From: Acetobacteraceae bacterium
GTDB lineage: Bacteria; Bacillota; Sulfobacillia; JAIMBG01
Direction of reading: 5' to 3'
Assembly (NCBI GenBank): GCA_023511555.1
Contig: JAIMBG010000001.1
Location: forward strand, 961-64,960
Length of the DNA: 64,000 bases
Shown here: positions 14,493 to 35,929 of the stretch, one piece after another
Layout: each line of letters opens with the position of its first letter
Numbering within the stretch: position 1 is the stretch's first letter
Program-made: the position numbers and the translations under genes
Notes under the pieces: generated by a model
The model's input: the letters and a program-made list of their open reading frames with translations, nothing else
Databases searched by the model: none
Told to the model about the DNA's origin: nothing

Positions 14493-15674
14493 TCAGCCCT
14501 CCTCTGCCTTGCTTTGACTTTGATTCTTCCACGCCGTGAACCTGGCCTCCACCTCCGTGGCCGATAGCGCCGGGGCCAGCGCCCGCCATCCCTCTATCAG
14601 CCCGTCGCGCTCCTCCCCGCTAAGCGGCCGGAACTCGGCGGCGTCCACCAGCAGGCGGCTGCCCCGAACCCTGTAGTCCCAAATGCCCACCACGCGGCCC
14701 CTGGACCACAGCGTGGCGGCGACAAATCCCCCCGGCAGGAACAGCCGTTGACGCCATGCGTCGTCGACGAAGCGCTGCCGGTCCTTGAGCCCCAGCACCA
14801 GGGGATCGAAGCGCGGCAGGGGGAAGGCGGTCCGCGACGGCTTCACCGCCGCGAGAGCCGGCATGTCCGCGGCCAGCATAAGGAGGGGCCTTGTCGAGCC
14901 CTCTACCTCCACCTCGGCTACGGCTTCCCCCAACCTGCGGCGTGCGTCCTCGGCCGGCCCCACCCGGTCGAAGCCCGCCCAGTAGGCGAAGTCGGCGGTA
15001 GACGCCGGGCCGTAGGCCCGAAGGTACCGGCGCAGCAGCTCCGCCCTGGCCCGGCCAGCGGCCTCTTCCGGCGCCCCGGTGGGCGACTCCAGTGCCGTCT
15101 CCTCCACCCAGTCCTTGAGCCAGGTCCTGGCCAGAGCGAAGCGGGCCTCGTTGCCCTCGGGCTCGGCGTGGACCAGGAACCCTAAATAGCAGAAGTCCTT
15201 CACGTCCTGCCCCCACTGGGCCCCGGGGATTCGGGCCAGGTCGGGGACCAGCTCGTGGAGCCGACGCCGCGTGGCGGGACCCTGCTCCAGCGCCCGGGCC
15301 ACCTTGCCGGGCAGCGCCTCTATCTCCGCGGGGCTGAACCCGCACTGGGTGAAGAACGCCTGGTAGCCCGCCCCGCGCGGCCTCATGACGGCGCCCAGGA
15401 ACAGGGGGAGGTCCCGCGACGCCAGGAGGTGCAGCGTGCCCCGCATGCACCACACCTTGACCAGGGCCCTCCGCTCATAGAGCTCCTGCTCGAACCGGGC
15501 CCGGTCGTAGCCCGCGACCCGCGCCGCCGCCGACATGGCGGCGCTGGTGAGAAGCTGGGCGTGAAGCCCCAGCACACTTTGCGCCGCCTCCGCCGCGTCC
15601 GCCAGGGCGGCGCCGGGGGCCAGCCCGTGCCGCTCGATGGCTAAAGCCGCCGCCTGTTCCAGGGGGACCTTCAT
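14493..15674 (-). CDS. Winged-helix DNA glycosylase of the YcaQ/AlkZ family
   Basis: ~390 aa, the size of YcaQ/AlkZ (interstrand crosslink/alkyl-lesion glycosylases). A candidate H38-A39-Q40 motif lies at the position of the AlkZ catalytic Q-Phi-Q. Recalled from memory; not profile-searched. Confidence 0.55.
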   Translation of the reverse strand: MKVPLEQAAALAIERHGLAPGAALADAAEAAQSVLGLHAQLLTSAAMSAAARVAGYDRARFEQELYERRALVKVWCMRGTLHLLASRDLPLFLGAVMRPRGAGYQAFFTQCGFSPAEIEALPGKVARALEQGPATRRRLHELVPDLARIPGAQWGQDVKDFCYLGFLVHAEPEGNEARFALARTWLKDWVEETALESPTGAPEEAAGRARAELLRRYLRAYGPASTADFAYWAGFDRVGPAEDARRRLGEAVAEVEVEGSTRPLLMLAADMPALAAVKPSRTAFPLPRFDPLVLGLKDRQRFVDDAWRQRLFLPGGFVAATLWSRGRVVGIWDYRVRGSRLLVDAAEFRPLSGEERDGLIEGWRALAPALSATEVEARFTAWKNQSQSKAEEG

Positions 15675-16876
15675 GGCGCCTGCCCTCCCTCGGGGGGCTT
15701 CCCCCCGGACTCTGCCGCCAGGCGGAGGACCGCCTCCACCAGCTCCAGGGTCTGGGCCGCTGTCCCGAACGTGGACGGCGGCGGGAACCCCATGGCCAGG
15801 CTCACCCTGAACTGCCTCATCTCGCCCAGGTACCCCTGAAGGGCCAGCGTCCCCGTCTCGAGCTGGGGGAGGTGGAAGTTGGGCTCGTAGACCAGGGCGG
15901 CCTCGTCCCCTTCAGCCGGCCTTTCCGGGGGCTGGCCCCGGAACCAGCGCACCCGGACCACGTTCTCTACCTCTGCCCGCATCCTGGTGCCGTACAGCGT
16001 GAGCCGCTCGCAGGGCTCCTGCCAGCCGGCCGATGTGGAGAGCGACAGCGTGCCCAGGGCACCGGAGCTGAACGCCAGCCACACCTGGACGGCCACGGGG
16101 CCCTCGGCCGCCTCCGCGCCCGGTGGTGCGGCGCCCGCCTGAGCCCCCGGGCCCCCGGGCGGGGTGGGGGCTGCCGACGCGCCGTTTGAAGCCTGCGGAC
16201 CGCATGAGGCCTGCGTTGCGGCGGACTGGCCCACTATCGGGCCGCTTAAGCCTTGCCGGCCGCCTGCGGCCGAGCCGGCGGGGGGGCGGGCCGGAACCCG
16301 GGGCCGGCGGGCCTGGACCTCCTCCACCGGCCCGCAGAGGTGGAGCGCCAGGTCGAGGTAGTGGGCTCCGTAGTCGAAGAGGAAGGACTCCAGGGAGCCG
16401 TAGGGGCCGGCGGAGGCCTCCAGGCACAGCAGCAGCGGGCCGCCGAACGCCGGCGAGGAAGATATCCTTCGGGCCCGGGAATAGGAGGGGGCGAAACGCT
16501 TCATGAACCCCGTCTGGGCCAAGAGCCTCTTCTCCTCCGCCAGCCGGGCGATCTCCCGGGCTTCGGCCGCCGTCCTTGCCGGCGGCTTCTCCACGAACAC
16601 CGGCAGCCCCCGGGAAAGGCACTCCCGGGCCAGGGTGCCGTTCAGTTCCCGCGACACCGCTATTACAGCGGCGTCGCATTCTACCGACCCCAGGGCCTCC
16701 TCCAGCGAGCCGAACGCCGGTACCCCGTAGGCCCTGGCCACTGCCTGGGCCCGGTCGGCCTGAGGGTCACAGGCGGCGGCGGGCAAAAGCCCCGACCGCT
16801 CCATCGCCGGCAGCAGCGAGGTGCGCATGTGGGCCCCGCAGCCTACCACCAGCACGCGGGACTCAGACCCGGTCAT
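15671..16876 (-). CDS. Gfo/Idh/MocA-family NAD(P)-dependent oxidoreductase
   Basis: ATG 16876 (MTGSESRVLVVGCGAHMR…, Rossmann GxGxxG) overlaps the upstream SDR stop (ATGA). A long Pro/Ala/Gly low-complexity insertion sits mid-protein. The maximal ORF to 17215 is an antisense artefact. Confidence 0.75.
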   Translation of the reverse strand: MTGSESRVLVVGCGAHMRTSLLPAMERSGLLPAAACDPQADRAQAVARAYGVPAFGSLEEALGSVECDAAVIAVSRELNGTLARECLSRGLPVFVEKPPARTAAEAREIARLAEEKRLLAQTGFMKRFAPSYSRARRISSSPAFGGPLLLCLEASAGPYGSLESFLFDYGAHYLDLALHLCGPVEEVQARRPRVPARPPAGSAAGGRQGLSGPIVGQSAATQASCGPQASNGASAAPTPPGGPGAQAGAAPPGAEAAEGPVAVQVWLAFSSGALGTLSLSTSAGWQEPCERLTLYGTRMRAEVENVVRVRWFRGQPPERPAEGDEAALVYEPNFHLPQLETGTLALQGYLGEMRQFRVSLAMGFPPPSTFGTAAQTLELVEAVLRLAAESGGKPPEGGQAP

Positions 16877-35346: not shown

Positions 35347-35929
35347 AGCCTCCCCCTCCCCGCGCCTCTCCGCGCCGCCCGGCATACTCCCCGCGCAGCA
35401 GGCCGAGTCGGATGGTCTTCCAGAAGCGGCCGTCCACGTATACGTCGTCACGGCTCTCGCCCTCGACCTGGAACCCCGCCGACTGGAACAGCCTTAGCGA
35501 TCGCCGGTTGAACTCGAAGGTGGTCGCCTGGACCTTGTGGGCCGCCTGGCCGTCGAAGAGGAGGGCCAGAAGGAGGTCGAGCGCTTCACGGCCGTACCCC
35601 TTGCCCCAGAGATCGGGCCGGCCGATGAGCAGGCCGACGTCGTACACCCCGAACTCCCTCACCCTGGTCCAGCGCGCCCACCCGATGAGCTCCTGGGGCA
35701 GCAGCACCACGCCGTAGGCGCGGAAGTCGGGGGAAAAGGCCCGTTCCCGGTAGCGCTGCTCTAAGAAGGCGAGGGGTATCTGGTCGACTGAGGCGTCAAA
35801 CATCTTGAGCACCTCGGGGTCTGAAAGCCACGCCCAGTAAGAGCGGTTGTCCTCGGGCTCCCAGGCCCTGAGTGCCACGCGGCTGCCGGCTATCACTCCC
35901 CCCACCTCCATGCGGCCGCGGCCGTGCAA
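35339..35929 (-). CDS. GNAT-family N-acetyltransferase (RimJ/RimL-like)
   Basis: GNAT fold motifs (…VGLLIGRPDLWGKGYGREALDLLL…FQSAGF…). Confidence 0.8.
   Translation of the reverse strand: MHGRGRMEVGGVIAGSRVALRAWEPEDNRSYWAWLSDPEVLKMFDASVDQIPLAFLEQRYRERAFSPDFRAYGVVLLPQELIGWARWTRVREFGVYDVGLLIGRPDLWGKGYGREALDLLLALLFDGQAAHKVQATTFEFNRRSLRLFQSAGFQVEGESRDDVYVDGRFWKTIRLGLLRGEYAGRRGEARGGGGCG

Follow-up and report, generated by a model that had tools for sequence, protein, structure and literature searches.

The closest described systems, in concept, to the gene cluster considered here are the scaffold-peptide pathways of fosfazinomycin (FzmZ/FzmA), the nitrilobacillins, and the pearlins. In the fosfazinomycin pathway, the asparagine synthetase (AS)-like enzyme FzmA acts on the C-terminus of a 22-residue scaffold peptide with a YxxP motif (PMC13622209), and leader motifs of the type [Y/W]xxP are bound by discrete lasso-type recognition elements (RREs) of peptides that are synthesized ribosomally and modified post-translationally (RiPPs) (PMC13381572; PMC13622209). 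A second point of reference is QueA, which transfers the ribosyl carbons of S-adenosylmethionine (SAM) to an amine as a 2,3-epoxy-4,5-dihydroxycyclopentyl group with release of adenine and methionine, its natural product being an epoxide (PMC10491745). Reviews of 2022 and 2023 (including PMC10491745) call QueA a unique, tRNA-only enzyme. In the present work we have analyzed a 64,000-nucleotide stretch (hereafter the window; contig JAIMBG010000001.1 of assembly GCA_023511555.1, positions 961 to 64,960) of a metagenome-assembled genome labeled Acetobacteraceae bacterium. On its minus strand, a conserved, operon-like cluster of ~21 kb combines two QueA paralogs, QueA-a and QueA-b, with a PqqD-family RRE and a 25-codon precursor peptide gene, and we conclude that this array is very probably a RiPP/scaffold-peptide biosynthetic gene cluster.

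Like the scaffold-peptide pathways, the cluster has a ribosomal peptide of 21-25 residues that carries YxxP near its N-terminus, an RRE of the PqqD type, an AS-like enzyme, kinase-fold proteins, and a major facilitator superfamily (MFS) exporter, and the chemistry proposed for it likewise takes place at the peptide C-terminus. It differs from them in that no QueA homolog has been reported there, in that its AS-like enzyme is accessory and has neither a fused RRE nor the glutaminase nucleophile, and in the absence of phosphonate, hydrazine, or PEARL genes. The QueA family has not previously been linked to peptides: searches of the open-access literature gave no account of a system of QueA, RRE, and peptide and no paper containing both QueA and PqqD. 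The first-pass annotation of this DNA had proposed an uncharacterised system mixing RiPP, carrier/adenylation, and QueA-type parts, which is supported by the synteny, the profile matches, and this lack of a match in the literature. The product is probably an undescribed peptide-derived natural product, and possibly a DNA-damaging one.

Conserved Core in Three Architectures

Gene calls were made by third-position GC analysis and Pfam/NCBIfam profile searches; the G+C content of the window is ~70-74%. Related loci display three architectures, referred to here as variants A, B, and C. The relatives of the window in variant A (L001/2, L018, L019, L038, and L003, on ENA and JGI metagenome contigs; protein identity 54-87%) are syntenic without a break from the exporter gene MFS1 to an AlkZ-like DNA glycosylase gene and on into a Liv transporter. 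The block thus stays together in relatives, on independent contigs. Variant B (L004-6 and L010-11; QueA-a 48% identical) has the order DinB_2, ANL enzyme, QueA-a, PqqD, peptide, carrier protein, B12-radical SAM enzyme, QueA-b, aldo-keto reductase, SQHop_cyclase-like protein, GFO dehydrogenase, MFS, and a 612-residue homolog of the orphan protein U671 of the window. Variant C (L007-9, L020-23, and L029; QueA-a 47% identical) has the order Fe-ADH, a TldD/PmbA pair, QueA-a, PqqD, peptide, UDPGDH-like protein, GT4 glycosyltransferase, PIG-L, short-chain dehydrogenase/reductase (SDR), GFO dehydrogenase, ABC-2 exporter, and AlkZ-like glycosylase.

Over the three architectures the invariant core is QueA-a, followed by PqqD and the peptide gene, and we take these three to be the functional core. 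The GFO dehydrogenase and an exporter occur in all variants and the SDR in A and C. Variants A and B, which are exactly those with an S-C-K peptide core, also have in common QueA-b, an ANL enzyme, a carrier protein, and a member of the U671 family. The three SBP_bac_5 solute-binding proteins (SBPs), the nucleotidase, the APH-like and AsnB-like proteins, and the GNAT acetyltransferase are regarded as lineage-specific accessories.

The conserved block starts at MFS1, because L038, a 65%-identity relative, lacks the GNAT and MFS2 genes that precede it in the window. There the MFS1 ortholog (71%) lies directly upstream of the nucleotidase gene and the genes upstream of MFS1 are unrelated; tblastn finds no match to the GNAT in L038, and MFS2 has no ortholog, its sole match being the MFS1 ortholog at 32%. 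The profile calls for the GNAT and the upstream MFS protein are sound; the membership of MFS2 is doubtful, and we regard the GNAT as an accessory or a recent addition. It has weak AAC(6')/ArsN1-like matches.

These comparisons bear on the trivial explanation that the array is a chance juxtaposition of co-directional housekeeping or otherwise unrelated genes (a tRNA QueA, SBPs for peptide uptake, a nucleotidase, and DNA repair). Both paralogs are indeed named QueA by the NCBI pipeline, and the GNAT, MFS2, and perhaps the Liv transporter do not share the conservation of the block. However, the synteny is complete across independent contigs and the core recurs in other architectures, export signals are missing from the SBPs and the nucleotidase, both QueA paralogs carry clade-specific motif changes, and the genes are coupled through overlaps and Shine-Dalgarno (SD) sequences. 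The explanation is thereby largely refuted, and we give it almost no weight.

Precursor Peptide

The 25-codon open reading frame (ORF) is preceded by the strong SD sequence AAGGGAGG, starts with TTG, and encodes MKAYVKPLCAKVELFKELTLSCKLM. The leader contains Y4-V-K-P7, an instance of the lasso-type [Y/W]xxP motif common to the peptides, and T19, twelve residues past the Pro, is at position -2, such that the predicted core consists of the five residues SCKLM, with the invariant Cys as Cys22. Homologous ORFs are located directly 3' of PqqD in every related locus that reaches far enough. They adjoin PqqD in seven locus groups, and with L024, in which the gene for the peptide (MLDNWNTPSATRVDLVTDLSGLSVACPTMPE) lies upstream and is oriented divergently, on the opposite strand, the groups number eight in all. 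The other peptides are MKAYMKPACDKVELFKELTLSCKLL in L001, MKSYRKPELKSVELFKEVTLSCKMT in L004, MKTYSKPGIKPIDLFKEVTLSCKVS in L010, MKKKPYTKPQAKKVTTKASIAGLAMACCKITT[LH] in L007/8, MKSSYCKPCAHKVDTISGISGLAMACCHLLTSAS in L020-23, and ...RKAYAKPSATKVQTAEAISGLAMACCAVVMTPTSK in L031. In variants A and B, the Thr twelve residues after the Pro corresponds to position -2 of a lasso-style cleavage site, and the resulting core has five residues, SCK[LMV]x. Over all peptide types, [L/M/V]-[S/A]-Cys is the sole invariant feature of the core, and the Cys is the only invariant residue.

When the window is compared with L004 (enzymes ~48% identical), codons 12-24 of the peptide gene show six synonymous and three non-synonymous differences, the former including a switch between the Ser codons TCG and AGC. 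Because the ORF is conserved across clusters with 47-48% identical enzymes while its synonymous codons have turned over, it is, as judged from these alignments, a genuine precursor gene that has been under purifying selection. The earlier description of it as a PqqA-like ORF is thus correct as to its being a precursor, but the leader is of the lasso/YxxP type and not specifically PqqA-like. A back-translated peptide pattern, run against 185,579 GTDB species genomes, gave six chance matches with no QueA or PqqD nearby.

The peptide does resemble PqqA in the pattern KP...E-[LV]-T-L, and the PqqD chaperone is likewise shared with pyrroloquinoline quinone (PQQ) biosynthesis. That pathway itself was considered and rejected, as the peptide core has no Tyr and PqqE, PqqB, and PqqC are missing; Pfam detects no Radical_SAM, PqqB, or PqqC domain among the cluster proteins of the window, which, unlike the PQQ genes, are accompanied by exporter and resistance genes. 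One may also consider that the peptide gives rise to a redox cofactor, analogous to PQQ or mycofactocin, for the co-encoded SDR and GFO dehydrogenase, rather than to an exported toxin. Mycofactocin-type systems pair a peptide, an RRE, and dehydrogenases, and the dehydrogenases here are conserved across the variants, which, together with the PqqA-like peptide and the PqqD protein, speaks for such a cofactor. However, variants A and C contain no radical SAM enzyme of the PqqE/MftC type, the peptide has neither the Glu-x3-Tyr nor the C-terminal Val-Tyr substrate, every variant has a dedicated efflux pump, and the AZL glycosylase or DinB_2 protein (see below) points to toxicity. The family is moreover very rare, unlike cofactor pathways. 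We therefore consider the cofactor explanation improbable.

QueA Paralogs and PqqD

QueA-a and QueA-b match the QueA structures 1VKY/1YY3 at ~1e-80. Their scores of 332 and 326 bits, respectively, pass the NCBIfam QueA equivalog cutoff of 324 only marginally, which is the origin of the QueA label in the database. The two paralogs are 40% identical, and in a neighbor-joining tree they form separate clades, both outside the housekeeping QueA group. Both have clade-specific motif substitutions, the largest being those of QueA-a, which retains the most conserved motifs of the family but has the signature AAGRHFT / NFH[QG]P / FYEFGD (AAGRHFT / SSLP / NFHQP / FYEFGD in the window), not matching the housekeeping motifs PTAGLHFT / GTFRP / NFHLP / FFSFGD. 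QueA-b retains PTAGLHFT but has NLHPP / FYDFGD, and is closer to housekeeping QueA. The signature of QueA-a is rare: it occurs in ~10 of the best 150 representatives at 50% identity from a library of 1.84 billion proteins, in which the QueA family has more than 5,000 representatives at E <= 1e-30.

The window paralogs belong to the same fold family as housekeeping QueA and keep the motifs most conserved in the family. Unlike it, however, their genes lie within a biosynthetic operon, adjacent to those for an RRE and a precursor, and their substrate is likely a peptide or small molecule rather than preQ1-tRNA. Housekeeping queuosine synthesis was rejected on account of the altered motifs, the biosynthetic context, and the grouping outside housekeeping QueA. 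The net charge and pI of the paralogs, used as a proxy for lost tRNA binding, do not discriminate them from housekeeping QueA, and a blastn search of the core against plasmids gave no match. A lead from tagetitoxin was also discarded, since the "ribosyltransferase-isomerase" of P. syringae pv. tagetis is a housekeeping queA bordering the hrp island.

The PqqD gene lies directly 3' of QueA-a in every variant whose sequence extends that far. The best NCBIfam match of the protein is the lasso PqqD chaperone (53.8 bits, cutoff 70); an exact look-up of the protein returned no database record. This similarity raises the question of whether the product could be a lasso-like or macrolactam RiPP of an atypical kind, with the AsnB-like protein as the key cyclase, PqqD as the B1 protein, and the QueA paralogs as accessory or non-catalytic proteins. 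The discrete PqqD is indeed closest to lasso B1, the leader fits Y-x-x-P-x11-T-x, and the AsnB-like protein has weak matches to macrolactam and lasso cyclases. The predicted core, however, is too short at five residues and offers no Asp or Glu acceptor, which lasso peptides have at position 7-9 of a core that begins with Gly, Ala, Ser, or Cys; no Transglut_core match, and hence no B2 protease of the transglutaminase type, is detected even at E = 10; and the AsnB-like enzyme, which is N-terminally truncated and scores 20 bits against a lasso cyclase cutoff of 525, is absent from variants B and C, whereas QueA-a is always present. A genuine lasso peptide was rejected for these reasons, and the lasso-like alternative is very improbable, even more so than a cofactor.

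Two further groups of QueA-like proteins were encountered in other loci. A separate clade in L034 (119-7260) and L035 (9469-14683) is part of a different RiPP-like module with the common order SnoaL-like protein, QueA-like protein, radical SAM-SPASM protein, and B12-radical SAM enzyme. L034 has in addition a 95-residue ORF after the QueA-like gene, and a pyridoxal phosphate-dependent decarboxylase and a CAAX-type protease after the B12-radical SAM gene; no precursor was identified in this module. In L025-L028 (L028 213-6242, L026 1276-6738), a QueA-like clade with PSAGRHFT and an insertion of ~17 residues after LHxG has a sulfotransferase, an ABC exporter, and a polysaccharide pyruvyl transferase as neighbors, and is not obviously peptide-linked.

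AlkZ-like Glycosylase and Putative Producer Resistance

The last gene of the cluster had been assigned to a DNA glycosylase of the YcaQ/AlkZ family. The profile match agrees with this, and the motif places the protein on the AlkZ side of the family: in its alignment with AlkZ (5UUJ; 4.9e-23), HAQ takes the place of the catalytic QAQ. The motif (Q/H)-phi-Q defines the AlkZ-like (AZL) subfamily, as opposed to the Q-phi-D of YcaQ-like proteins; the latter are never found in clusters for DNA alkylators, while AZL proteins are enriched in them, notably in those for epoxides, with DinB-type proteins as typical neighbors (PMC9040887). The corresponding protein of variant C (Pfam 2.4e-53) has the motif QDQ. 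Candidate resistance genes occur in all three architectures, AlkZ-like in A and C and DinB_2 in B.

On the basis of its motif and position, the AlkZ-like protein is a putative self-resistance glycosylase. The closest systems in resistance logic are the AZL-containing genotoxin clusters of azinomycin B, hedamycin, and trioxacarcin, with which the window shares the HTH_42/AlkZ-like fold, the (H/Q)-x-Q motif, and the location at the end of a biosynthetic operon. It differs from them in that the gene belongs to a cluster of the RiPP type, in a metagenome-assembled genome that is not from Streptomyces. The presence of an AZL-type glycosylase suggests an electrophilic, DNA-alkylating product. Its recurrence in variants A and C, with QueA-a proteins that are 47% identical, together with DinB_2 in variant B, constitutes the strongest clue to the activity of the product, and the AlkZ-like gene probably tells more than any other about the function of the product.

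Adenylation, Carrier, AsnB-like, and APH-Fold Proteins

In the ANL enzyme, the A3 motif TSGSTGIPK and the A10 motif PRTPSGK are intact. Variant B also has an ANL enzyme 5' of QueA-a, with 28-30% identity to that of the window, and its carrier protein, a 98-residue ORF, matches PP-binding with 23.9 bits. The Ser of the carrier protein is aligned with a DS motif in a by-eye alignment of the translations. The AsnB-like protein, which starts with MNRAG, aligns only to positions 133-515 of the asn_synth_AEB profile. It accordingly lacks the Cys2 glutaminase nucleophile, while the PP-loop SGGVDS is intact at residue 140. The gene is present in variant A only.

The ANL enzyme and the carrier protein of variants A and B would fit a scheme in which the QueA homologs act not on the peptide itself but on a small-molecule or carrier-tethered amine loaded by the ANL enzyme, the AsnB-like enzyme then joining the carbocycle to the peptide C-terminus before release, as in fosfazinomycin and the pearlins. 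The native nucleophile of QueA is likewise an amine, and in fosfazinomycin a unit that is made separately is joined to the YxxP scaffold peptide by an AS-like enzyme. However, variant C has QueA-a, PqqD, and the peptide without the ANL enzyme, the carrier protein, or the AsnB-like enzyme; the AsnB-like gene is specific to variant A; and the tight order of QueA-a, PqqD, and peptide points to an RRE-dependent, peptide-modifying enzyme. We consider this small-molecule scheme unlikely, albeit less so than the other alternatives discussed here.

The APH-fold protein had been described as a kinase. Its fold is upheld, but the catalytic Asp of the H-x-D-x4-N loop is replaced by Asn: the sequence is HGNLANMSN in the window and HANLANMSN in four relatives, compared to the catalytic HGD. 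The change is found in all five orthologs, while the ATP- and Mg-binding residues are still in place, namely the Gly-loop, the beta-3 Lys, and the IDLE Asp. As far as these motifs can tell, the protein may be a pseudokinase or an atypical kinase or catalyst.

Proposed Pathway

On balance we favor a RiPP/scaffold-peptide pathway in which a divergent QueA homolog is the class-defining enzyme. In this pathway, PqqD would bind the lasso-type YxxP leader and present the C-terminal core to QueA-a, which would use SAM as ribosyl (C5) donor, as QueA does on preQ1-tRNA, and release adenine and methionine. Transfer to the thiol of the invariant Cys (or, less likely, to an amine) would give an epoxy-dihydroxycyclopentyl adduct, for which the calculated mass shift is +C5H6O3 = +114.03 Da. 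Where the core is S-C-K, a second modification, perhaps on the Lys, may come from QueA-b together with the ANL enzyme, the carrier protein, and the U671-family protein. The cyclitol-like ring would then be tailored by the IolG-like GFO dehydrogenase, the SDR, and lineage-specific enzymes, namely the APH-fold protein, the phosphoesterase, and the GNAT in the window, and GT4, PIG-L, and UDPGDH in variant C. A cyclitol-like substituent is consistent with these families, because they usually act on sugars, cyclitols, and aminoglycosides; we take the GT4 and PIG-L of variant C to be an MshA/MshB-type pair as in mycothiol biosynthesis. The glutaminase-less AsnB-like enzyme would adenylate a carboxylate, probably that of the peptide C-terminus, for amidation or ligation. 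The leader or scaffold would be removed by the HExxH protein U417, and by TldD/PmbA in variant C; MFS1 would export the product, and the AZL-type glycosylase would protect the DNA of the producer.

The more specific proposal, that QueA-type carbocycle transfer from SAM to the ribosomal peptide yields a genotoxin, is put forward tentatively, as a possibility with the odds somewhat against it. Here the RRE-guided QueA-a would set a carbocyclic epoxide warhead on the conserved Cys, with the second paralog maybe acting on the Lys. The epoxide, or an enone derived from it, would account for the AZL glycosylase, and the two QueA paralogs could, speculatively, make the product a bifunctional cross-linker.

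Several points weigh against the proposed pathway. Each of its chemical steps is inferred and none observed. The retention of ribosyl-transfer/isomerase chemistry is an assumption, because substrate binding by QueA is not established even for the tRNA enzyme (PMC10491745). A thiol nucleophile has no precedent for QueA, and the invariant Cys could have another role. The APH-like protein lacks the catalytic base, neither structures nor profiles give a usable assignment for U417 or U671, and the cluster contains no condensation catalyst; the scheme does not explain what the three SBPs, the phosphoesterase, the ANL enzyme, and the carrier protein do. The middle residue of the variant-C AlkZ motif, QDQ, is non-aliphatic. 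Finally, the variant-A relatives represent about two lineages, and the negative literature result covers open-access papers only.

If correct, QueA chemistry, which is among the most unusual SAM reactions known, would here be used outside tRNA for the first time, by a QueA clade acting on peptides, and this clade would offer a tractable small substrate for studying the mechanism of QueA, for which there is no substrate-bound structure. It would define a new RiPP/scaffold-peptide class, joining the small molecules built on YxxP scaffold peptides, with products that would act as genotoxins by alkylating and possibly cross-linking DNA, an AlkZ-like glycosylase being dedicated to counteracting them. 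The recurrence of AlkZ-like and DinB genes makes the cluster a lead, guided by resistance, toward a genotoxin scaffold that would be new and come from outside Streptomyces. With the QueA homologs annotated as housekeeping enzymes, annotation-based mining may miss such clusters.

Organization of the Gene Block

The run of minus-strand genes is uninterrupted from MFS2 down to the AlkZ-like gene (Table 1). Nearly all the calls of the first-pass annotation are upheld by the Pfam/NCBIfam searches: the two QueA-family paralogs, the PqqD-like RRE, the carrier protein (just above the gathering score), the ANL adenylating enzyme, the AsnB-like protein without a glutaminase domain, the three SBP_bac_5 paralogs without signal peptides, the cytoplasmic 5'-nucleotidase, and the 671-residue protein without an assignment. 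The genes that it listed are real, and the SDR and the GFO/IDH/MocA dehydrogenase have to be added to them.

Table 1. Genes and Other Features of the Cluster and Its Flanks, in the Order of Transcription (Window Positions)
Feature	Position	Strand	Evidence and remarks
MFS2	36356-37765	-	MFS_1; 426 nt upstream; membership doubtful
GNAT acetyltransferase	35339-35929	-	Acetyltransf_3 3e-20; overlaps MFS1 start
MFS1 efflux pump, DHA3/EntS-like	34105-35346	-	MFS_1/MFS_3; 2A0121 H+ antiporter 1e-48
UshA/5'-nucleotidase-family metallophosphoesterase	32618-34108	-	5_nucleotid_C 2.5e-24, Metallophos 1.3e-4
Three SBP_bac_5 paralogs	31009-32595, 29408-31012, 27809-29386	-	SBP_bac_5 1e-50 to 2e-66
Stand-alone carrier protein, 80 aa	27563-27805	-	PP-binding 21.7 bits (gathering score 20.8)
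ANL adenylating enzyme	26014-27555	-	AMP-binding 3e-52 and AMP-binding_C
Asn-synthetase-like (AsnB-like) protein	24578-25996	-	Asn_synthase 7.7e-26
APH-fold protein	23556-24545	-	APH 1.3e-21
QueA-a	22490-23566	-	Queuosine_synth 2e-105
PqqD-family RRE	22180-22470	-	Pfam PqqD (PF05402) 4.2e-19
Precursor peptide gene, 25 codons	22083-22160	-	SD and TTG start; homologs
GC stem-loop, 13 bp, no U-tract	22044-22073	-	Folding of the gap 3' of the precursor gene
QueA-b	20960-21985	-	Queuosine_synth 2e-97
U417, 417-aa HExxH protein, putative gluzincin-type peptidase	19700-20953	-	HETGH at residue 238
U671, 668/671-aa orphan	17629-19635	-	No Pfam match
SDR	16873-17604	-	adh_short 2e-59; TGGGRGIG and YCASK motifs
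GFO/IDH/MocA oxidoreductase (inositol/sugar dehydrogenase type)	15671-16876	-	GFO_IDH_MocA 1e-21
AlkZ-like (AZL-type) DNA glycosylase	14493-15674	-	AlkZ-like (PF06224) 1.6e-52
LivKHMGF-type ABC importer, complete	9845-14488	-	Peripla_BP_6, two BPD_transp_2, two ABC_tran

Most junctions measure -11 to +55 nt, as previously stated, with several ATGA/GTGA overlaps and SD-supported starts that bear out the earlier impression of coupled genes. The exception is the junction of 88-97 nt between the precursor gene and QueA-b, which holds a hairpin. The 96-nt gap region 3' of the precursor gene folds with a minimum free energy of -46.1 kcal/mol (z -2.8), and the same hairpin, with changed sequence, is found in L001, a 77% relative, at ~11512-11543 (z -5.2); it was not seen in L004 of variant B. 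The hairpin is a possible attenuator or mRNA-stabilizing element and could set the ratio of precursor to enzyme transcript. A promoter/terminator scan gave counts no better than those of shuffled sequence, and an Rfam search of the region upstream of the cluster gave no match.

The LivKHMGF importer begins 4 nt past the stop codon of the AlkZ-like gene. Synteny with L001 extends over LivK and the first permease, and the importer was not seen in the available sequence of variants B and C. Its membership is uncertain, and it may be co-transcribed with the cluster.

The three SBPs and the nucleotidase have no signal peptides, while the neighboring LivK-like protein, which serves as an internal control, has a lipoprotein signal. 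The SBP paralogs, present in variant A only, are 35-41% identical to one another and 72-78% identical to their orthologs. The nucleotidase-family protein matches UshA at 9e-32 and SoxB at 1e-20, has EHH instead of DxH in motif I, and represents a rare subfamily with four close relatives.

In U417, which had been called an HExxH peptidase, H238, E239, H242, and E263 are invariant among the orthologs. The HExxH motif and the additional Glu thus stand, but the peptidase assignment is based on this motif and on a weak Peptidase_M3 match at it (E 0.13, Pfam searched at E = 10). U671 has only two family members among 5.8e9 proteins and no Pfam or PDB match; it is homologous to the 612-residue protein that ends variant B (E 7e-21), a conserved Cys motif being common to both. 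For the two proteins, phmmer and profile searches against PDB sequences yielded nothing meaningful, and the AlphaFold2 models are unusable, with mean confidence scores (pLDDT) of 38 for U417 (single sequence) and 39 for U671 (alignment of two sequences). A transglutaminase (lasso B2) role of U671 is unsupported, as the Cys motif has no conserved His/Asp partner and no profile supports it.

The SDR has an 87% ortholog in L001, and the SDR of variant C is 44% identical. The best NCBIfam matches of the GFO dehydrogenase are IolG and UDP-GlcNAc 3-dehydrogenase. Compared to the L001 ortholog, its gene has an in-frame insertion of ~60 residues rich in P/A/G/S (~16094-16315, minus strand), located between the Rossmann and the C-terminal domains.

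Other Features of the Window and the Related Loci

In L020, a 1993-residue protein is encoded directly upstream of the variant-C cluster (76-6057, plus strand), with a 3-keto-disaccharide hydrolase domain as its sole recognizable domain. In the window, a long plus-strand ORF that is transcribed divergently from MFS2 was missed by the third-position GC filter. Its C-terminal ~430 residues (~38400-39724) look like a secreted protein, with the signal-peptide-like stretch ...ALALVLALVLLLPRAALA, and have no Pfam match.

Further along the plus strand, tandem glycine riboswitch aptamers (RF00504, 64 and 48 bits; 43554-43740) are located upstream of gcvT at 43879, and behind them follows an operon of gcvT, gcvH, and split gcvPA/gcvPB (43879-48353). 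The split gcvPA/gcvPB genes with the tandem glycine riboswitch, as well as the very strong GGAGG-type SD sequences before nearly every gene, would be more typical of high-GC Bacillota, and the relatives of the QueA proteins are closest to Bacillota/Limnochordia genomes. The NCBI label "Acetobacteraceae bacterium" of this metagenome-assembled genome may thus be wrong.

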